This document shows positions 82 to 10,257 of a DNA stretch of 10,257 bases, one piece after another. Origin of the DNA: a virus (taxonomy: Duplodnaviria; Heunggongvirae; Uroviricota; Caudoviricetes). Location of the stretch: positions 1-10,257 of IMG/VR virus record IMGVR_UViG_2547132272_000016, one strand, 5' to 3'. The position numbers and the translations under genes are program-made. Within the stretch, counting starts at the first letter, position 1. Each line of letters begins with the position of its first letter. The notes beneath the pieces were generated by a model. It was not told the origin of the DNA. It saw nothing but the letters and a program-made list of their open reading frames with translations, and did no database searches.

Positions 82-1041
82 TTACTCCTTGTCCATTGCG
101 TACAGCCCATTAACCAGAGCAAACTGTGGCACCCCGTCCGCGATGAAAGTTGCATTAACTCCGCAGGCTTCGCGGATAGCGGGTGCCACAATCTCCGCTC
201 CTCCACCGACAACCATCACCCGCCCGTAACCCGAAAAACCCGCCAGCGCGCGGATCACGCGTTGTTTCAGTGTTTCTTCCTTTTCACGAATAACTGCCAT
301 CAGGCTGGCGTAATGCGCGTCATTGTGGATGTGCTGGCGCAGCCAGGCTTCATCATGGCGATGTTCGATAATGGTATTGGCGATGTGGTGACTGGTGCGC
401 ATACCGTTAGTGGCCATCACCGACAGTACGGCATCGGCCATCAGAGAAACGCCTACGTGTGGATCGCAAAACACCTGGCTGATACCTGCCAGTTGCCCCT
501 GAACCTTTGCCACATCCAGCGTGGTTCCGCCCAAATCCACAATCAGCAGGGATTCAAACGGACTCATGTCAGCCAGTGCCTTAAAGCCAGCCGGAATGGA
601 TTCAGGCATAACCCGCACGTTACGGATAGTGAATGCCTCGCCGTTCTGGTACTCCACCGGGCGCATAACGTTCGCTTTTTTGCGGCTGATGTTGGCCATG
701 TCCGGCTGTGCGTTTGTATCGAAATACTCGCTCAGTGGCAGGGTGACAACCACATCCACTTCCTGTGGCGTGATGCCTGATTTGACCAGCGCGTGATGAA
801 TGGCAATGACATTCACATCGCTGTACTGGTATTGCGTGTCGGTCGTCTGGATAAAGCGATCGCTGACCGGATCAAAACCATAGCGCACGCCATCAAGCAT
901 GTAGTTCGCGGGCTGCGTGCCACCGAACGGCGCAGACCATTCCGACTTGAAGCTGTTCGGGCTGATGGCGTTGCGGCGTTCGCCGTTCTCAGTCCATGCC
1001 AGCTTGATGTTGGTGGAGCCGTCGTCGATACAAATTTTCAT
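82..1041 (-). CDS. parM: Actin-like plasmid segregation ATPase ParM/StbA
   Basis: 319-aa ORF with ATG start and AAGGA Shine-Dalgarno 8 nt upstream. N-terminus MKICIDDGSTNIKLAW plus the blocks ISPNSFKSEW, YQYSDVNVIAIHHAL, VMPESIPAGF and DLGGTTLD match recalled R1 ParM/StbA motifs (actin-fold phosphate-1 DDGSTN and DxGGGT-type motifs). Confidence 0.88.
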   Translation of the reverse strand: MKICIDDGSTNIKLAWTENGERRNAISPNSFKSEWSAPFGGTQPANYMLDGVRYGFDPVSDRFIQTTDTQYQYSDVNVIAIHHALVKSGITPQEVDVVVTLPLSEYFDTNAQPDMANISRKKANVMRPVEYQNGEAFTIRNVRVMPESIPAGFKALADMSPFESLLIVDLGGTTLDVAKVQGQLAGISQVFCDPHVGVSLMADAVLSVMATNGMRTSHHIANTIIEHRHDEAWLRQHIHNDAHYASLMAVIREKEETLKQRVIRALAGFSGYGRVMVVGGGAEIVAPAIREACGVNATFIADGVPQFALVNGLYAMDKE

Positions 1042-1072: not shown

Positions 1073-1184
1073 TTTACGGGATTTTTAAATCCCGCTTTCG
1101 CCTGTTTTGTGCGCACTTCATGTTTTATGGCGCGTTTTTTGCTCATTTACGGGATTTGTGAATCCCGTTTCTGTCTGTTTTTTG
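1073..1184. repeat. Two ~39-bp direct repeats 73 bp apart, each with an 18-bp palindrome (CGGGATTT-nn-AAATCCCG); candidate parC-like centromere/operator or replication-origin element
   Basis: Repeat 1 (1073-1111, palindrome 1077-1094) lies in the 76-bp gap between the A stop and the parM start, overlapping the likely parM promoter. Repeat 2 (1146-1184, palindrome 1150-1167) lies inside the last codons of gene A. About 80% identity between the copies. Confidence 0.45.
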
Positions 1185-3925
1185 TTTCCACTGGTCAGGC
1201 CACCCCGCAGCAGGTCTGCTTTGCGGTGGGCGCGTTCAGTGGTTTCACTGATTCTTTGTGCATGCTCTGCGTCACGGATGGCGCGCAGCATGTCAGAAAG
1301 CACGGTAACGGGTGTTTTCATGGTGTTCTGGTCTTGCTGAAGTGTGGATGCCAGGCGTGCGGCGGCTTCGGGGTCTGATGCCCCCAGCTGTTCCAGATAG
1401 CTGGCGACCGGGTTATGACGGATCTCCGTGCTGCTTACGCCGTGATTGCGGCTCAGGCGCTGCCAGAGCTGCGTGATTCGGCTGTCCGGGCGGGTATCCG
1501 GTTTGCGTACAATTTCAAATCCCTGCGGTGCAATGATGCTGCCGTCAACGTACAGGCTGCCGCCCCGTAACAGGTGCTGCATCTGCTGTTCACCGATATG
1601 CAGGCCGAGAGATTCGGCAGACTCCCGCCATTCTTTAGCGAGTAATTCGTGGTTATCAGGCAAAGGCCGCTGCTGTTTGCGGCTCTGTGTCCAGCTCTGC
1701 ATTTCATCACTGCTGTTTTTTGCCTGTTTGTCACGCAGCGAACGCATCAGCGCCCGGCGTTCGTGCCGTTTCAGTGAGCGCATCCATTCGTTCACTTCAA
1801 CGCCGTCAGGGAGCTGCGGCCACGGTGCTGGCCGTTCTTCCGGCTGTTCTGTCCCGTTGTTGTCCGTTTCCTGTACACGGGGACAGTTATTGCCACGAGT
1901 CCAAGGGGCGGCAGGGCCGCCCTGAAGGTCAAAACCATTTTCGCGGGCGCTGTCTTCCGCTTCCGGTTTGCGTCTTACCAGCTTCCAGTTATCCGGATGC
2001 GTGCATACGCGGGAAGACTCCCCAATGAGCGGCGACCAGATCCCGTAAATCTGTACGCTCTGTTCACCGTAATCGTTCAGCTCATCTGCGAGGTCGTAGG
2101 CGGTGCGAATCAGGTAGTCCTTGCGTGGAACAAGCACGCCACCCTGTTTTTCAATGTAGGTGGCAAAACACCCGGCATCGGCGGCAGCGAGTACCGCATC
2201 CATTGCATCATCTTTCAGCCGTTGCGGGCCTTCCGGATTGCGTGCCATCTGGCTGGCAAGGCGGCGCAGTTCACGCCACACCTGACGGGAGGGGATACCA
2301 AAGAACTGGAACTGACGGACCCGGTGAAGGCGCGCCCAGCCGATGGCGCGCTCCACGCTCTCGGCCATTGATTTTCCGGTTTCGTGGTCAACGCGTGGCT
2401 TGCCCGTTTTCGGGTCGATGCCATCCACGGCGCGGCTGTCCAGGTTCTTTCCGATGTAGGTAGCGATGTAGCTGGTTGGTGTGCCTTTTGAGCCGTCGAC
2501 ATACTCCGCCTTAAAGCGCGGAGTAATATCATTGCCCAGCTCGTGGCGGTCCTCCTGAATGGCAATATCGCAGACGTGGGACACGATGGTTTCAATCTCG
2601 TCCGGATGTGCAAAGACCATCATATGCCAGTGCACGGTGCCGTCATGGTGAGGCTCCACCGTGCGGATGCCATACCAGCGCAGGCCGTCGCGGTTCAGTT
2701 TTTTGCGGACCGCCGCAAAAAACGTGTTAACCAGGTAATCGCTGGAGTCGCGCATGGTGGCCCCGTTCCATTTGGGGTTCGGATGACCGTTCTCCGTTGT
2801 TGCGTGGTATTTTGACGGGCAGGTGACGGTCAGAAACACCGCTCTGTCGCCACGGGCTTCGGCCAGAAGTTCCAGTCCCTTCATGGTGGCCATCATTTCT
2901 GCCTTACGGTGAACCGGGTTACTTACTCCCGCGTAATACACCGTCTCGAGATCAATCGTGAACCCGTCTTCATTTTCCAGCATGAAACTTTTCAGGAAAT
3001 CGCGTGTTTTCTCGCGCTGTGCGCGAAACTCGCTTAACGCATCCTGGCTCAGATAGGGTGATGTTTTTCTGGAAACCAGACAGGCGGCGCGGAGTTGTTC
3101 TTCTCTCCACTCGCAACGTAACAGCCACAGTTTGCGTTTCCACCAGTCCGCACAGGTCAGGCGGAGGATTGCGCCCGGTAACAGTTCCGTATTCGGATCG
3201 CTCTTGTTCAGGGCTTCGTAATGTGGCGGCATGATGTGCAGGCATAATGCGATACGGGCTAGCATCCGGTAAGCCTTCAACATTACATCCATGGTCAGCT
3301 CGCCATCTCTGGCACCAAAGCCATCGCAGAGTGTTTCAAAGGTGCTGCTGAACATCGCCGCCGTCATGGTGGCCAGCGTCTGTATCTGGTGCTTGTTGAG
3401 CTGCGGCAGGTAAAGCAAATCGTCCAGGCGTTCTCGCCCGGCAAGGGAGCGATAACCCGGTGTCAGCCAGCGTCCGTCAGTGCGATCCAGACGTTCGAAT
3501 ATTTTGCGCAGGGTTCCGCGTGCATAGCGTTCCGCCTGCCAGCTCTTTTTGCCTTTCTGGCGATCGGCTTCCTGTTTTTTGCGCAGGAAGGAGAGGTGGC
3601 GAATAAGCGGATCGCGCAGATAGGATGGCAGCAGGCGCAGCGAGGCCATGGCTTCATCCACCGCGCCGCGTGCCTGTTTTCTGGCTTCTCTGGCCAGTGT
3701 GATGGTTTTGTCCTGTTTTTCCTGTGCGTCCAGGCTTTTATTAATCAGGTTGCCCAGCGGTGTGGCGGAGAACGCCGCATCAGCCATTTCCTGGCGGCGT
3801 TCGTTCTCTGCCCGGTAGGCATCCAGCCAGGAGGAAAGTGCGGATTCAGGTGCGGGGATCTCCGTTCCTTCACGTCCTACTGCGTGGCGCGGTTGTTGCC
3901 AGTCCCTGATGTACTCTGTCGTCAT
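1118..3925 (-). CDS. A: P2 gpA-family rolling-circle replication initiator (HUH endonuclease)
   Basis: 935-aa ORF with an HUH motif (VHWHMMVF) followed by a paired-tyrosine YxxxY motif (TSYIATYIGK), the arrangement recalled for P2 gpA and phiX174 gpA. Sits as the last large gene of the early operon, as in P2. An R/E/Q-rich C-terminal ~300 aa makes it longer than P2 gpA (761 aa). Confidence 0.85.
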   Translation of the reverse strand: MTTEYIRDWQQPRHAVGREGTEIPAPESALSSWLDAYRAENERRQEMADAAFSATPLGNLINKSLDAQEKQDKTITLAREARKQARGAVDEAMASLRLLPSYLRDPLIRHLSFLRKKQEADRQKGKKSWQAERYARGTLRKIFERLDRTDGRWLTPGYRSLAGRERLDDLLYLPQLNKHQIQTLATMTAAMFSSTFETLCDGFGARDGELTMDVMLKAYRMLARIALCLHIMPPHYEALNKSDPNTELLPGAILRLTCADWWKRKLWLLRCEWREEQLRAACLVSRKTSPYLSQDALSEFRAQREKTRDFLKSFMLENEDGFTIDLETVYYAGVSNPVHRKAEMMATMKGLELLAEARGDRAVFLTVTCPSKYHATTENGHPNPKWNGATMRDSSDYLVNTFFAAVRKKLNRDGLRWYGIRTVEPHHDGTVHWHMMVFAHPDEIETIVSHVCDIAIQEDRHELGNDITPRFKAEYVDGSKGTPTSYIATYIGKNLDSRAVDGIDPKTGKPRVDHETGKSMAESVERAIGWARLHRVRQFQFFGIPSRQVWRELRRLASQMARNPEGPQRLKDDAMDAVLAAADAGCFATYIEKQGGVLVPRKDYLIRTAYDLADELNDYGEQSVQIYGIWSPLIGESSRVCTHPDNWKLVRRKPEAEDSARENGFDLQGGPAAPWTRGNNCPRVQETDNNGTEQPEERPAPWPQLPDGVEVNEWMRSLKRHERRALMRSLRDKQAKNSSDEMQSWTQSRKQQRPLPDNHELLAKEWRESAESLGLHIGEQQMQHLLRGGSLYVDGSIIAPQGFEIVRKPDTRPDSRITQLWQRLSRNHGVSSTEIRHNPVASYLEQLGASDPEAAARLASTLQQDQNTMKTPVTVLSDMLRAIRDAEHAQRISETTERAHRKADLLRGGLTSGNKKQTETGFTNPVNEQKTRHKT

Positions 3926-3931
3926 ACTGAT

Positions 3932-4297
3932 TTACTTCGTCATGCCATTCAGAGTGTCACGGCAAACGGCAGCCAGCCGCTGAATCTCCAGCACAGTGTC
4001 TTCTGTGTCGGCATGGTGGTGTGTGATGCGGATACTGTCGGCAATCACATCGACGATCGCAGAGGATGGGCGCTGGTAAATGCCAATAACGGACGGGGTG
4101 CCGCCTTCAATGCGGTAAAGCCTGTAATTTCCCTCGTGGCTGTCAATCATGTAGCGACCATCAATAACAATCTTTCCGTCAGCGAGCTGCGGTACAGGCA
4201 GGGATTTCAGGTACATGTCATAACGGTCACGCACGCGAACGGCAAGATCACGCTCTGTGTTGAGCAGGTATTCAAGAAAGTCGTTGGCGAGAATCAT
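3932..4297 (-). CDS. Hypothetical early-operon protein (121 aa)
   Basis: C-terminal 121 codons of the 326-aa track ORF. Internal ATG at 4297 has an AAGAGGA Shine-Dalgarno 8 nt upstream and protein-like composition from there on; the stop lies 6 nt before the gene A start. The upstream 205 codons are S/T/P-rich and look non-coding. Confidence 0.55.
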   Translation of the reverse strand: MILANDFLEYLLNTERDLAVRVRDRYDMYLKSLPVPQLADGKIVIDGRYMIDSHEGNYRLYRIEGGTPSVIGIYQRPSSAIVDVIADSIRITHHHADTEDTVLEIQRLAAVCRDTLNGMTK

Positions 4298-4370
4298 TGC
4301 GGCAATCCTCTTTACTACAGATGTGCGAAGGCCTCCCGCCGCAAGGTGCAGGAAAGGCCCGGAACAGGAA

Positions 4371-4601
4371 TTAATGGAGTTTGTTTTGCTGCTGGATGAG
4401 ATCCTGAAGAGACAGGAGGTCTTCCGCCAGATAGCTGAATACAGCGGCGCAGTAGTCGGCTGAAATAGTGCTGTTGAGTCTGTGCAATGTGTTGGATTGC
4501 ATGATAAAGGCGATGTGTGCAGCGCGGGTGAGTCTGCGGTCGATTTCAGTCTGGATGTGACGACGCTCTGCGATAGCGCGGTGCTGTTTGCGGTTTGCCA
4601 T
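4371..4601 (-). CDS. Hypothetical small basic protein (76 aa)
   Basis: ATG with AAGAGG Shine-Dalgarno 8 nt upstream; charged N-terminus (MANRKQHRAIAERRH..). No family recognised. Confidence 0.55.
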   Translation of the reverse strand: MANRKQHRAIAERRHIQTEIDRRLTRAAHIAFIMQSNTLHRLNSTISADYCAAVFSYLAEDLLSLQDLIQQQNKLH

Positions 4602-4692
4602 GGTGTGGCCTCTTTGGTTGTAAGTTTTGAAAACTCACCATCCAGAGGTGGAAAACTCGGGGTGGTGAGACGTACAGGGTTTCCACAACCGG

Positions 4693-4716
4693 CAACCAAA
4701 GAACCCGGCCCGACCG
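4693..4716 (-). other. Stable hairpin with a UUCG tetraloop on the transcribed (-) strand, in a 322-bp non-coding gap
   Basis: Minus-strand RNA GGGGCCGAC-UUCG-GUCGGGCCGGG followed by UUCUUUGGUUG. Could be an attenuator, processing site or terminator. Confidence 0.3.
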
Positions 4717-4778
4717 AAGTCGGCCCCATACGCCCCACCATAATTCGTGTGCGAAAAAGACGTGGCGATACGGTACGC

Positions 4779-4801
4779 ACAAAAAAACCGCTGGCGCGGT
4801 T
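4779..4801 (-). terminator. Candidate rho-independent terminator or attenuator on the - strand
   Basis: Minus strand reads ACCGC-GCCA-GCGGT followed by TTTTTTTGTG, about 125 nt downstream of the 99-aa gene stop. The stem is short (4-5 bp), so this is weak. Confidence 0.3.
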
Positions 4802-4923
4802 GTGCGCTTTGGTTGTCAGCGGGGTGGAAATCCCGGCACCCGTTTTATGAGGTGCAGCGGAAATGTAACCTGACTGATTGCGGCATGGCAAGCGGTTTTT
4901 TTGTGTGTGCATGTTCTGGTTTC

Positions 4924-7085: not shown

Positions 7086-7117
7086 CCATGCCCGGCGCAT
7101 GGTTTTGTGGTATTTTT
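7086..7117 (+). terminator. Candidate + strand hairpin with U-tract (terminator or attenuator) upstream of the + strand accessory gene
   Basis: CCATGC-CCGGC-GCATGG stem-loop (7086-7102) followed by TTTTGTGGTATTTTT. An overlapping alternative stem GCCGGG-N11-CCCGGC (7074-7096) could compete with it. Confidence 0.25.
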
Positions 7118-7182
7118 CCACCGCCCGCAGTCTTGAAGGGGCTGTAAAGGGCGCGTGTTTAACCAACCACAAAGGAGTTGTT

Positions 7183-7650
7183 ATGGAATTAGATGCTTTT
7201 GTGTGTCTGCGAATTTTTGAAAAACACTGCGAGCGAGTTGCTGAATCCTATCGTGATGTGCTGGATAAAGAAACAGCCAACTCAGCATTTGTTGCTACTC
7301 GAGCATTAATTCTCCTTAAATTGGATTTGCTACTTGTCGAGTATCGAAGAAATATTGATTCCAAGTGTGTAGTCCTCTTCGGAAAAAATGTGCTTTATCA
7401 TTATCTTTTCACCCAAAAGGGTGTTTCATTGTCTGATGCCAAAAATATGTGTCTCCATGACATACTTATTGTTCTCTGGAATGATATTAATGCATATGTA
7501 ATACCAGAGCATGTATCCGAGCGTATCCAGATTCTTTATAAGCACGAGCTCTCATCTCCAATGCCTGATTTAAGTTATGAAGATGAAAGTCTGTTGCACT
7601 TTAAGGATTCTGCTTGGGATTTTTATCCTGCCGATACACGACTGAATTAA
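7183..7650 (+). CDS. Accessory protein of unknown function (155 aa), opposite strand to the early operon, low GC
   Basis: ATG at 7183 with AAGGAG Shine-Dalgarno 6 nt upstream (the track ORF extends upstream only via a TTG). AT-rich codon usage unlike the flanking phage genes. Its 3' end overlaps the convergent 202-aa gene by about 47 nt. Confidence 0.6.
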   Translation: MELDAFVCLRIFEKHCERVAESYRDVLDKETANSAFVATRALILLKLDLLLVEYRRNIDSKCVVLFGKNVLYHYLFTQKGVSLSDAKNMCLHDILIVLWNDINAYVIPEHVSERIQILYKHELSSPMPDLSYEDESLLHFKDSAWDFYPADTRLN

Positions 7651-8209
7651 GAAACTCATTGTTTCTATCTATTTCAGCCTGGTAGGCCTCTAACTCATGC
7701 CGTAATTGTTGTTGTCTTAGTGGTAACCTGTTGCGGCATTTCAATTCTGCTACAACGGTTTCCAAAAAATTTATCAGTTCTTCATCAGTGTATGAGCCAG
7801 CATAAATGTACGGTTTAGTGTTAGCGCATGTACAGTCTGCTGTTTCTTTAATGAGCATTGATTCGTCATCCATAATCTGTCGATAAAGTTCAAATGCTTC
7901 TTCGGCAGGAAACCTGAGCATGACGCCGCATACTGGTTCTAAAACCAATCCGAACGTTCCCTTTGCGTTATCCCGACAAAAATGGCCGTATTCATCGTCG
8001 GGATGCAGGGTGGCATCTTTCAAATCTTCGCCATTCTGAAGCTTTGATTTAAATGCCATCAGGTCAGCGAACGTTCTGTGTAATTCGTGGTAGTCAATGC
8101 TGATTTCAACCTGTGGTTTGCCCGGAAAAACCAGCAAAAGCTTCTGGTGTGGTTTTTCGTTTTTCAGGGTTTCCAGTCGTTCCAGTAGCGCTTTATTTTT
8201 GTGATTCAT
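7601..8209 (-). CDS. Hypothetical protein (202 aa), second gene of the leftward early transcript, low GC
   Basis: ATG with AAGAGG Shine-Dalgarno about 10 nt upstream. No family recognised. Its 3' end overlaps the + strand 155-aa gene. Confidence 0.6.
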   Translation of the reverse strand: MNHKNKALLERLETLKNEKPHQKLLLVFPGKPQVEISIDYHELHRTFADLMAFKSKLQNGEDLKDATLHPDDEYGHFCRDNAKGTFGLVLEPVCGVMLRFPAEEAFELYRQIMDDESMLIKETADCTCANTKPYIYAGSYTDEELINFLETVVAELKCRNRLPLRQQQLRHELEAYQAEIDRNNEFLNSVVYRQDKNPKQNP

Positions 8210-8313
8210 TCTACTGTTACCTCTTTTAACTCATTCAGGCAGTGTGATATAGCCCACTAACTGCCCGTGTTTGAAATAACGGCGACGAAAATAATGTGTT
8301 AACAATAAAGCAA

Positions 8314-8739
8314 TCATGCGGCCCTCGCTTTTTTAGTTCTGCTTCGTTTGCTATGTGTCGGCTTAAATAAAAACAGGCGGTTTTCCCAGTCATGCCATTC
8401 CTGCGGAGCGTTTTCGATCAAGCGATCACATGCTTCATCCCACGCTTTTCTGTTGATGTAGAGTTCAGCGTTTCCTCCTGGCCTAAGAGGGTCTGTCATA
8501 TACACGGCTGGCAATTTCCCTGCTTTAGCCATGCTCACAATGGCGCTAACTGTTTTGCCGATATACAGCGCAAATCCTTCTTTTGACAGGAGATGCGAGG
8601 GATTTTCTGAAAGTCGAATTTCTTCACGTTCACGTGCTTTGCGTTCTGTTTTTTGATGCTCCCCTTCTGGCATTTCTGACAGGCGATCGCATCGTGTTCC
8701 GCAAAGTGACTCAGGCGCGTTTTGAGTGCTTTCTTGCAT
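8314..8739 (-). CDS. cox: Cox/Apl-like HTH regulator (excisionase/early-operon repressor type), unusually long
   Basis: First gene leftward of the switch region, the position of P2 cox and 186 apl. Central HTH-like segment GFALYIGKTVSAIVSMAKAGKLPAVYMTDP resembles what I recall of P2 Cox. Start placed at ATG 8739 (GGAGG Shine-Dalgarno 7 nt upstream) rather than the track's GTG at 8778. At 141 aa versus ~90 for P2 Cox it has a charged N-terminal extension; it could alternatively be a CII-type regulator. Confidence 0.55.
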   Translation of the reverse strand: MQESTQNAPESLCGTRCDRLSEMPEGEHQKTERKAREREEIRLSENPSHLLSKEGFALYIGKTVSAIVSMAKAGKLPAVYMTDPLRPGGNAELYINRKAWDEACDRLIENAPQEWHDWENRLFLFKPTHSKRSRTKKARAA

Positions 8740-8812
8740 CTGATATCCTCCGCCATTGGTGCTCTTTCTAATTGGCACTAGTTGGAACCACTTAGAACAT
8801 TTGTTTGCTGTT

Positions 8813-8840
8813 CATATGTGGTGTTAATCTACACATATGT
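8813..8840. promoter_or_regulatory. Candidate repressor operator: CATATGTG-N11-CACATATG (also two direct CATATGT copies 20 bp apart)
   Basis: The two half-sites flank the proposed -10 of the leftward early promoter, analogous to P2 C operators flanking the Pe -10 and 186 CI operators at pR. Confidence 0.4.
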
Positions 8841-8853
8841 AGGAGTTTGTCAA
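8826..8853 (-). promoter_or_regulatory. Candidate early lytic promoter (Pe-like), transcribing leftward toward cox
   Basis: Perfect -35 TTGACA on the - strand (8853-8848), 16-nt spacer, -10 TAGATT (8831-8826). The -35 abuts the C start codon, so the early transcript would be antisense to the C 5' end. Confidence 0.4.
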
Positions 8854-9147
8854 ATGGACATTCCTCAAAAAATTCGCGTCATGCGCAAATCTGAAGATCT
8901 CACTCAGCGGGAATTCGCTGATATGATTGGAATTTCTTATTCTGCTCTGACCAGTTATGAGTATGGTCGTAACCTTCCTGGCCTCGAGATCACTATCAAG
9001 CTTTTCAAGCACCCGAGATTTTCTAAATACCGCGACTGGTTTCTGTTTGATGAAGTTGAACCCAAGGCCGGGCAGGTTGTACCGGCTCTCGCACACATTG
9101 GGCAAGGCGAAGCGGAATCATCCCGCTCCGGCAAGAAAACTGGTTAA
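8854..9147 (+). CDS. C: P2 C-type immunity repressor
   Basis: Start at internal ATG 8854 with AGGAG Shine-Dalgarno 8 nt upstream. The 97-aa product matches recalled P2 C features: KIRVMRKSEDLTQREFADMIGISYSALTSYEYGR and the C-terminal PALAHIGQ...SGKKTG. Lies immediately upstream of int on the same strand, as in P2. Confidence 0.85.
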   Translation: MDIPQKIRVMRKSEDLTQREFADMIGISYSALTSYEYGRNLPGLEITIKLFKHPRFSKYRDWFLFDEVEPKAGQVVPALAHIGQGEAESSRSGKKTG

Positions 9148-9213
9148 CGGTTCACCAGGCATTTATTTCCCAGAGCTGTGATCAAGATGATGTTTTCATT
9201 GGAGGGCTTCCTT

Positions 9214-10209
9214 ATGTCGATTAAGAAGCTCGCTAATGGCAAATTTTGTGTGGACGTGCGGCCTGCTGGATCAGAAGGAAAGAGATTCAGGCGGCGATTT
9301 GATACTCGTGGTGAGGCTGTTTTGTATGAGCGTCATGTATTGCAGCATTACCACGACAAAGACTGGGTTGATAAGCCAACAGAACGGCGCTCGCTGAGGG
9401 AGTTGCTGGATTGTTGGTGGCTATACCATGGGAAAAACCATCCTTACGGTGCGATGGAGCGAGTGCGTATTTCTGCGGTCATTAGTGATCTTGAAAGTAT
9501 TAATGTTACACGCAGTGACCAACTTACTCGTAAGAACATAATTAATTATCGGTTATTGTTGCTTAACCGCGGAATAAAACAATCCACGGTTAATCGTTAT
9601 TGCGCAATGATGAGTGGTTTCTTCACAAAACTAATTGACGCAGAGGAATATTCTGGGGTTAATCCGTTTCATGATGTGAAAAAACTTAATATCAAACAGC
9701 CTGAAATGGCTTATTTGTATCATGAAGATATTCCACGATTACTGGAGTTGTTATCTGGTGATGAATTAAAAGCCGTCTTGTTGTGTCTGGCAACAGGTGG
9801 AAGATGGAGTGAAGTTGCAAATATCAAGGGGGAGCATGTTATTAGCGGCAAAGTCATTTTTATGGAAACAAAAAATGGGAAGCGTCGCGTTATACCTATA
9901 TCGTCAGAACTGGAGTGCATGATTAAGACTAAGGCTACTGGTCGTTTAATTTATCCGAGTTATGCCGCTGTCAGAACGGCTATCAGAAAAGTGAGGCCCG
10001 ATCTTCCTGAAGGGCAGTCGATACATGTTTTACGGCATACCTTTGCCACTCACTTCATGATTAATGGCGGGAATATCATCACTTTGCAGAGAATACTTGG
10101 GCATAGCACTATTCAGCAGACGATGACTTATGCCCATTTTGCACCGGATTATCTGCAGGATGCTGTGCGCTTTAATCCTGTGGCTGAGTTGTCCAGATAT
10201 TGCCCATAA
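9214..10209 (+). CDS. int: P2-type tyrosine integrase
   Basis: Start at ATG 9214 (MSIKKLANGKF..., compare P2 Int MAIKKL...) with GGAGGG Shine-Dalgarno 7 nt upstream; the track's GTG at 9178 is probably an over-extension. C-terminal catalytic region HVLRHTFATHFMINGGNIITLQRILGHSTIQQTMTYAHFAP carries the conserved R, H-x-x-R and catalytic Y of tyrosine recombinases. Confidence 0.92.
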   Translation: MSIKKLANGKFCVDVRPAGSEGKRFRRRFDTRGEAVLYERHVLQHYHDKDWVDKPTERRSLRELLDCWWLYHGKNHPYGAMERVRISAVISDLESINVTRSDQLTRKNIINYRLLLLNRGIKQSTVNRYCAMMSGFFTKLIDAEEYSGVNPFHDVKKLNIKQPEMAYLYHEDIPRLLELLSGDELKAVLLCLATGGRWSEVANIKGEHVISGKVIFMETKNGKRRVIPISSELECMIKTKATGRLIYPSYAAVRTAIRKVRPDLPEGQSIHVLRHTFATHFMINGGNIITLQRILGHSTIQQTMTYAHFAPDYLQDAVRFNPVAELSRYCP

Positions 10210-10257
10210 AATAGGACTAAATAAGCCTTGAACCGCCCCGGGAATCCTGGAGACTAA

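Follow-up and report, generated by a model that had tools for sequence, protein, structure and literature searches.

In the well-studied lysis-lysogeny switch of phage P2, the repressor C binds two 8-bp direct repeats whose centers lie 22 bp apart (PMC1904268). The P2 record (AF063097, Peduovirus P2) has a 114-bp spacer between cox and C. The -35 element of the early promoter Pe, TTGACA, overlaps the start codon of C, the -10 element is TAGTAT, and two 8-bp operators are set 22 bp apart, O1 within the -35/-10 spacer and O2 immediately past the -10. Transcripts from Pe and from the C promoter Pc overlap by about 35 nt (PMC1904263), and the P2 cox-boxes, which are spaced by 10 to 11 bp, overlap Pc (PMC3936717). 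P2 C forms a symmetric dimer whose recognition helices lie close together, and a proposed model has each half-site occupied by one dimer (PMC2995052). The repeats bound by C vary in sequence, length and spacing among immunity classes (PMC1904268).

In phage 186 (CI/Apl, pR-pL), a strong lytic promoter faces a weaker lysogenic one, the repressor binds over the lytic promoter, and the switch contains phased direct repeats to which an excisionase-type protein binds. The 186 repressor CI, roughly twice as large as C and built of two domains, the C-terminal one for oligomerization, recognizes inverted repeats as well as distal sites, and 186 also has cII and an SOS-controlled antirepressor. Helically phased direct repeats are the usual pattern for Cox/Apl-type directionality factors (PMC7498355). 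The sequenced phage closest to the locus described here is Escherichia phage P88 (Xuanwuvirus; KP063541), with 83% identity over positions 8335-9200; the paper on P88 does not treat the switch.

Genes of the locus

We analyzed a stretch of 10,257 bp ("the window") in which two divergent genes, cox and C, are separated by a 114-bp spacer (positions 8740-8853), equal in length to that of P2. The genes and their ribosome binding sequences, the latter read from the sequence, are as follows.

8314 to 8739, minus strand: cox (ATG at 8739), 426 nt, 141 aa, a Cox-family winged-HTH regulator/excisionase and first gene of the early operon
8746 to 8751, minus strand: cox Shine-Dalgarno sequence GGAGGA, 6 nt ahead of the ATG at 8739, invariant in all relatives
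8841 to 8845, plus strand: C Shine-Dalgarno sequence AGGAG, 8 nt ahead of the C ATG
8854 to 9147, plus strand: C immunity repressor gene (ATG at 8854-8856), 97 aa, HTH_3 (Pfam)
9214 to 10209, plus strand: integrase gene int, 996 nt as annotated in UPEC132, Int_N and Phage_integrase (Pfam), downstream of C in the lysogenic operon

The C protein was 44% identical to P2 C over 95 aa, without gaps and over the full length (E = 5e-35), and a search of the PDB returned the P2 "C protein" (2xcj/2l49) as the sole strong match, again over the full length (E = 3e-25). The cox product matched Pfam Phage_Cox at residues 40-120 (E = 4e-28) and was 38% identical to P2 Cox across 74 aa; its 426-nt counterpart in E. 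coli relatives is called "Cox family DNA-binding protein" by PGAP. At 141 aa, compared to 91 aa in P2, this Cox has an N-terminal extension of about 39 aa. The extension varies among relatives.

The remainder of the window is a P2-like early region with a DUF4761 gene, replication gene A and a ParM-like gene. Several side features were noted: a rare insert of about 1.2 kb sets cox apart from the next conserved gene, Rfam placed isrK and C4 antisense RNAs within the 5' part of the early-operon ORF at 3932-4912, and at its end the window runs into an IS3-family element, whose insertion point is 19-20 nt past int. An Rfam search of the switch region proper gave no match.

We consider the locus very likely to be the C/Cox lysis-lysogeny switch of a P88-like (Xuanwuvirus-type) prophage of the P2 family. 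At the level of sequence, the switch is of the P2 type and not of the 186 type, because its repressor is a single-domain, 97-aa homologue of P2 C and not a two-domain CI. The locus shares with P2 the gene order (cox leftward, C and int rightward), a full-length homologue of C and a homologue of Cox. The initial annotation had likened the switch to both P2 and 186. The P2 layout does match, whereas the resemblance to 186, which would extend to the facing promoters, the repressor site over the lytic promoter and the phased repeats, is a functional analogy only. A search for distal operator copies in the style of 186 CI looping found just single 1-mismatch matches in the window, at 4315 and 7493, which is the chance level. 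A LexA box search of the 10-kb window gave nothing above chance in a promoter context.

A predicted early promoter at the start of C

As anticipated in the initial annotation, a perfect TTGACA is present on the minus strand just upstream of the C ATG, with a -10 element 16 nt away. The predicted promoter, Pe, consists of the following.

8853 to 8848, minus strand: Pe -35 element TTGACA (perfect consensus), abutting the C ATG at 8854 and lying between the C Shine-Dalgarno sequence and the ATG
8831 to 8826, minus strand: Pe -10 element TAGATT, separated from the -35 by a 16-nt spacer
8819, minus strand: predicted Pe start, an A 7 nt downstream of the -10, placed from promoter geometry alone

On its own strand Pe reads TTGACA-aactc-CTACATATG-tg-TAGATT-aaca-CCACATATG. 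It scored 14.2 bits with a sigma-70 weight matrix and was the sole site of 14 bits or more on both strands of the 10,257-bp window; by chance, 0.31 such sites are expected per shuffled window and about 0.003 per 114-bp spacer. As in P2, and also in P88, the -35 is a TTGACA at the C start codon. Here it abuts the ATG, whereas that of P2 overlaps it, and the promoter spacer is 16 nt compared to 17 nt in P2.

We aligned 14 distinct switch sequences whose C proteins are 82-100% identical to that of the window. Their sources are E. coli, Salmonella, Yersinia and metagenomic viral contigs; we gathered the relatives by way of viral contigs, the protein database and the contigs that encode the proteins. 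The near-invariant blocks of the alignment were the cox start with its Shine-Dalgarno sequence, ATATGTG, TAATCTA, ACATATGT and GTTTGTCAAATGGA, and the stretches at 8799-8812 and 8823-8824 varied freely. TAATCTA, the plus-strand complement of the -10, was invariant in all same-class relatives, as was GTTTGTCAAATGGA, which contains the -35 and the ATG; GTTTGTCAAATG was invariant or nearly so across the 14 sequences. Identity to Salmonella, Yersinia and the relative L012 was 83-93% in 8810-8869, compared to roughly 60-80% in most of the adjacent coding DNA. At the sequence level, then, Pe is a strong early promoter that is predicted to read into cox, with its -35 at the start of C.

Repeats around the Pe -10 element

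The half-sites that the initial annotation had placed on either side of the Pe -10 are both present. They can be read as an inverted repeat, CATATGTG (8813-8820) and CACATATG (8832-8839), which is complementary at 8/8 positions and whose arms are 11 nt apart. These bases can equally be read as a direct repeat, CATATGT at 8813-8819 and 8834-8840, with starts 21 bp apart, and this extends to two 9-mers with the consensus CATATGT(R)G.

8813 to 8821, either strand: left (promoter-distal) putative repressor half-site CATATGTGG, equivalent by position to P2 O2, at about -2 to +7 of the predicted Pe start
8834 to 8842, either strand: right (promoter-proximal) putative repressor half-site CATATGTAG, equivalent to P2 O1, inside the -35/-10 spacer

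When the spacer was shuffled with dinucleotides preserved, 3.6% of the shuffles contained inverted repeats of 8 bp or longer, and 14% contained direct repeats of 7 bp or longer. Taken alone, the repeat is only mildly unusual by chance, and its weight derives from conservation. The left core, ATATGTG, was invariant in the 14 distinct relatives, and the right core, ACATATGT, was invariant except in one natural variant, L009, which has a mutated right half-site.

The layout resembles that of P2, in which two half-sites about two helical turns apart also flank the -10 (22 bp in P2, 21 bp here), and the place of the left half-site relative to the -10 matches that of P2 O2. The half-sites themselves differ: CATATGT(R)G has a palindromic core, compared to GTTTAGAT in P2. 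The right half-site lies within a quasi-palindrome, CTACACATATGTAG (8829-8842), and shares 2 nt with the C Shine-Dalgarno sequence. We propose that the two repeated half-sites flanking the -10 are likely the C operator, their orientation being ambiguous given the palindromic core. The earlier suggestion that the repressor binds over the early promoter -10, from inverted half-sites, thus gains from the P2-like layout, from conservation and from the exchange described below, although the inverted form is not favored over the direct repeat.

Direct or inverted half-sites

The sequence cannot separate the direct from the inverted reading because the shared core, CATATG, is itself palindromic. One possibility is that both arms form a single classical palindromic operator, CATATGTG-N11-CACATATG, symmetric like the sites of lambda, 434 or 186 CI. 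The inverted repeat is perfect and, in the shuffles above, rarer by chance than the direct one; inverted repeats are the usual target of HTH_3 proteins, and the symmetric P2 C dimer resembles binders of palindromes (PMC2995052). Sister classes also have palindromic features, namely the right site AGTGAGTTAACTTACT in P88 and AATTTACA-N5-TGTAAATT over the -10 in L029. We nevertheless regard a single palindrome as improbable. Its arm centers are 19-20 bp apart, too far for one compact C dimer, given that the recognition helices of P2 C are about 26 A apart, and the mapped C operators (P2, P2 Hy dis and WPhi) are all direct repeats.

Variation among the relatives points the same way. The innermost, eighth inverted pair, G8820:C8832, is present in the E. 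coli and Yersinia lineages, but becomes G:T in Salmonella, L012, L032 and L035 without compensation and with the DNA-binding domain essentially unchanged. L012 and L032 instead carry CATATGTGG twice, a perfect 9/9 direct repeat.

The arrangement that we favor is probably two P2-style half-sites bound by one C dimer each, because of the precedent in the family, the 21-bp spacing (two helical turns) and an arm distance of 19-20 bp that is too long for one compact dimer. A variant in which each half-site is itself a palindrome for one dimer was considered and rejected: the right copy lies in a quasi-palindrome of 14-16 bp, but the left copy is palindromic over 6 bp only.

Tentatively, this C class and its P88-like sister classes may recognize half-sites whose core is a palindrome (CATATG here and GTTAAC in P88, or the inverted AATTTACA-N5-TGTAAATT in a Salmonella class), although we think this somewhat unlikely.

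Exchange of the putative operator together with the DNA-binding domain

The comparison with P88 bears directly on the function of the repeats. The two are near-identical or identical in the 5' end of cox, in int and in the C-terminal half of C, and P88 has the same long Cox. Between these parts, a block of about 240 bp is replaced.

8780 to 9020, no strand: putative immunity cassette of about 240 bp that contains the putative operator, Pe and the DNA-binding N-terminal half of C and is replaced as a unit in P88

In 30-bp bins, identity to P88 was 97-100% over 8570-8749, 53-77% over 8780-9019 and 100% over 9050-9259. In the P88 class, the C-terminal half of C (40 aa) is identical to that of the window whereas the HTH differs (LTLAALRQYEQ), and another repeat, (A/G)TTAAC, occurs at the same place, twice, 25 bp apart, flanking TTGACA-17-TAGTTT. 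On the other hand, in relatives that have the operator of the window, the N-terminal domain of C is almost invariant (helix 3 SYSALTSYEY) and the C-terminal tails are divergent, as in L035.

These data suggest that the promoter and the repeats are specificity determinants, because they are replaced in P88 together with the DNA-binding domain of C. Co-exchange of operator and HTH is what would be expected if the repeat is the C operator, and we consider it the strongest argument for that assignment.

It could be argued that an AT-rich spacer has produced the promoter-like site and the repeats by chance and that cox is expressed from elsewhere, since repeats this short are individually not rare. 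We find this highly improbable: the number of sites of Pe quality expected per spacer is about 0.003, the elements are invariant across genera, their positions agree with the experimentally mapped P2 switch, and they are exchanged together with the HTH domain.

The switch region occurred at 90% identity or more in 13 of 5,426 complete E. coli genomes, and the exact C protein is recorded on 409 contigs. The DNA-binding domain of C was at most 54% identical to anything encoded in 50,697 phage genomes. When genome contigs were scanned with the C protein, the sole match was a partial one of 42% in a Rikenellaceae MAG, which is irrelevant here, and none of the papers searched contained the C protein or the operator strings. 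The switch thus appears to represent an immunity class that is new among the sequenced phages compared. In some Salmonella prophages two C genes follow each other in tandem, with different predicted specificities, so that double immunity could result.

Phased boxes on the cox side of the spacer

Like P2, the locus has helically phased repeats on the cox side of the spacer.

8772 to 8798, plus strand: three direct 7-bp boxes, TTGGCAC (8772-8778), TTGGAAC (8782-8788) and TTAGAAC (8792-8798), proposed as Cox boxes that may overlap the C promoter; consensus YTRGMAC

The initial annotation had described the first two as a direct repeat that could be Cox-type sites or the Pc -35. Both copies are there, but a third follows, and the starts of the three are exactly 10 bp apart. 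A phased triple of 7-mers with neighbors at least 6/7 identical arose in 0.08% of shuffles, in a test devised after the pattern had been seen. A YTRGMRC search found the motif clustered nowhere else in the window or in the P88 and UPEC132 loci. In all lineages that share this Cox winged-HTH segment, the boxes hold their position and the YTRGMAC consensus; these include the P88 class, which is predicted to be heteroimmune and has the same three-box array in the same position.

Binding by Cox is most likely the best explanation of the boxes, because Cox/Apl-type factors usually target direct repeats phased at one helical turn. Alternatively, the boxes might be Pc itself (box 1 as a -35, TTGGCA, and the region of box 3 as a -10), sites for some other factor (a host nucleoid protein, for example) or part of the leader of the cox mRNA. 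Read as a plus-strand promoter, TTGGCA-17-GAACAT (8772-8800) scored 8.7 bits. The consensus YTRGMAC is also unlike the P2 cox-box TTAAA(G/C)NC(A/C), and there are three clear boxes here compared to at least six in P2. Finally, we searched the P88 att region (345 bp), another place where an excisionase would be expected to bind, for phased triples with a weight matrix derived from 24 boxes. The outcome was negative, as 415 of 500 shuffles reached the same score or a higher one. However, the promoter-like reading is lost in Salmonella, Yersinia, L012 and the P88 class whereas the boxes and their 10-bp phasing are kept, and the Cox winged HTH is conserved wherever the boxes occur. The two readings are moreover compatible, as the P2 cox-boxes overlap Pc. 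We therefore rate functions other than Cox binding as possible but unlikely.

The predicted promoter of C and its probable orientation toward Pe

The C promoter must lie to the left of the C Shine-Dalgarno sequence (8841) and would fire rightward through Pe, because the Pe -35 sits between that Shine-Dalgarno sequence and the ATG. A scan of seven lineages with the sigma-70 weight matrix found no conserved and convincing Pc; the same scan recovered the known P2 Pc, which is of a TATAAT type not seen here. Two plus-strand candidates were noted. TTGAGT-16-TATCCT (8722-8749; 10.2 bits) is conserved, but it falls within the cox start and Shine-Dalgarno sequence, and its -35 is weakened in Salmonella by a synonymous change. 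The second is the 8.7-bit site at 8772-8800 mentioned above, which, like Pc of P2, overlaps the boxes, although other lineages do not conserve it. A back-to-back promoter over the Pe -10 (TTGTTT-18-TAATCT) was judged unlikely, as it is weak (6.5 bits), not conserved and would leave just 3-4 nt ahead of the Shine-Dalgarno sequence.

Face-to-face transcription from Pe and the C promoter, as claimed in the initial annotation, has geometry and homology to P2 in its favor, although no convincing or conserved Pc was located. On these grounds we hold convergent transcription to be quite probable.

Discussion

Together with the start sites of both transcripts, we infer C binding, Cox binding and the position of Pc from sequence. 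In the mechanism that we propose, Pe would fire leftward from near A8819 into cox and the early/replication operon, and a rightward transcript shared with int would serve for translation of C. The repressor would silence the prophage by binding CATATGT(R)G both at 8813-8821, over the start site, and at 8834-8842, in the -35/-10 spacer; the two copies start two helical turns (21 bp) apart. Bound C, probably one dimer per copy, would exclude RNA polymerase from Pe, as at O1 and O2 in P2. Cox, the first product of Pe, most likely binds the phased boxes at 8772-8798 and would thereby shut off C synthesis. Transcription from the C promoter is probably convergent with Pe, so that the two would interfere.

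In its basic mechanism the switch follows the well-studied one of P2, and specialists would find nothing surprising in it. What the region supplies is a testable map of operator and promoter for an uncharacterized immunity class of the P2 family, with related classes in Salmonella and Yersinia. Heteroimmunity with P88 is predicted despite nearly identical flanking DNA, and immunity specificity would appear to move as a small cassette made up of the operator and the HTH half of the C gene. The map may be of value for annotation and phage typing, and it offers a comparison case for how symmetric C dimers bind repeated sites. If half-sites with palindromic cores are indeed recognized in this clade, the rule that C repressors of the P2 family read non-palindromic direct repeats would not be general, and the clade would offer natural intermediates that bear on how a symmetric C dimer reads DNA.

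Replication gene A and a ParM-like gene

The replication gene A of the window is unusually long, and within its 935-aa product the Phage_GPA domain is confined to residues 179-498. Downstream of it is a complete gene for a segregation ATPase.

1118-3925, minus strand: replication gene A
82-1041, minus strand: ParM-like actin-type segregation ATPase gene

A candidate antisense RNA module in the early operon

Two Rfam families were matched at gathering level within the 5′ third of a 326-aa ORF (3932-4912).

4658-4745 and 4781-4855, both minus strand: C4 antisense RNA (80.5 bits) and isrK Hfq-binding sRNA (64.3 bits)

A weak Pfam match of the ORF to “Ash” spans this same stretch, and the ORF may have been called with a spurious 5′ end. 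The stretch looks like an antisense-controlled module of the P1-immI/isrK type within the early operon. Lysis-lysogeny or anti-repressor control could gain a second layer from such a module.

Cox and the neighboring insert

The Cox protein of the window comprises 141 aa compared to 91 aa in P2, and it carries an N-terminal extension.

8623-8739, minus strand: Cox residues 1-39, N-terminal extension

The order is a conserved MQE.TQN N-terminus, an acidic segment of variable length, a conserved basic patch and then the winged HTH. Among relatives Cox ranges from 135 to 167 aa, with an insert of ~30 aa in Salmonella.

In the E. coli UPEC132 prophage and phage P88 the DUF4761 gene directly follows cox, whereas in the window the two are separated by an insert of ~1.2 kb (7090-8313). 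Two ORFs were called in this insert, neither of which matched in Pfam or PADLOC.

7601-8209, minus strand: 202-aa ORF
8235-8393, minus strand: 52-aa ORF

Among 5,426 complete E. coli genomes, just one carries most of the 7090-8313 stretch. The insert could represent a moron or accessory cargo.

An insertion sequence next to int

The last stretch of the window (10229-10257) is one end of an IS3-family insertion sequence that resembles IS629/IS1203. The 32-nt IS end was matched by 2,134 plasmid records, in one of which it is followed by a transposase starting MTKNTRFSPEVRQRA. The IS end lies 19-20 nt past the int stop, a position occupied in P88 and the UPEC132 prophage by att-region DNA; the att arm adjoining int is therefore interrupted. 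The prophage may not be able to excise.

Predicted operators and tandem C genes

In one relative (L009, IMGVR_UViG_2671180460_000011), whose C protein is 98% identical, the right half-site reads CATGTGT rather than CATATGT, the change falling at the equivalent of window position 8837. This variant may represent an operator-weakening mutation or the decay of a defective prophage. In sister immunity classes, palindromic operator candidates occupy the same place as the window's predicted operator, at the predicted early promoter Pe.

L013 (P88 class), 1473-1488: AGTGAGTTAACTTACT, inside the Pe -35/-10 spacer
L029, 357-377: AATTTACA-N5-TGTAAATT, across the Pe -10

The L029 candidate has a 7/8 counterpart in L030. 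Both are Salmonella prophages and, together with a third (L035), they have a tandem pair of C repressor genes lying upstream of int.

L029, 390-997: tandem C genes
L030, 392-997: tandem C genes
L035, 701-1302: tandem C genes

For L029 and L030, the leading C falls in a third class (helix 3 PYGTFFQYEH) and is followed by a C with the window-class HTH. L035 places a C with the window-class HTH and operator ahead of one bearing the P88-class HTH. Such tandem pairs could confer simultaneous immunity to two phage classes.
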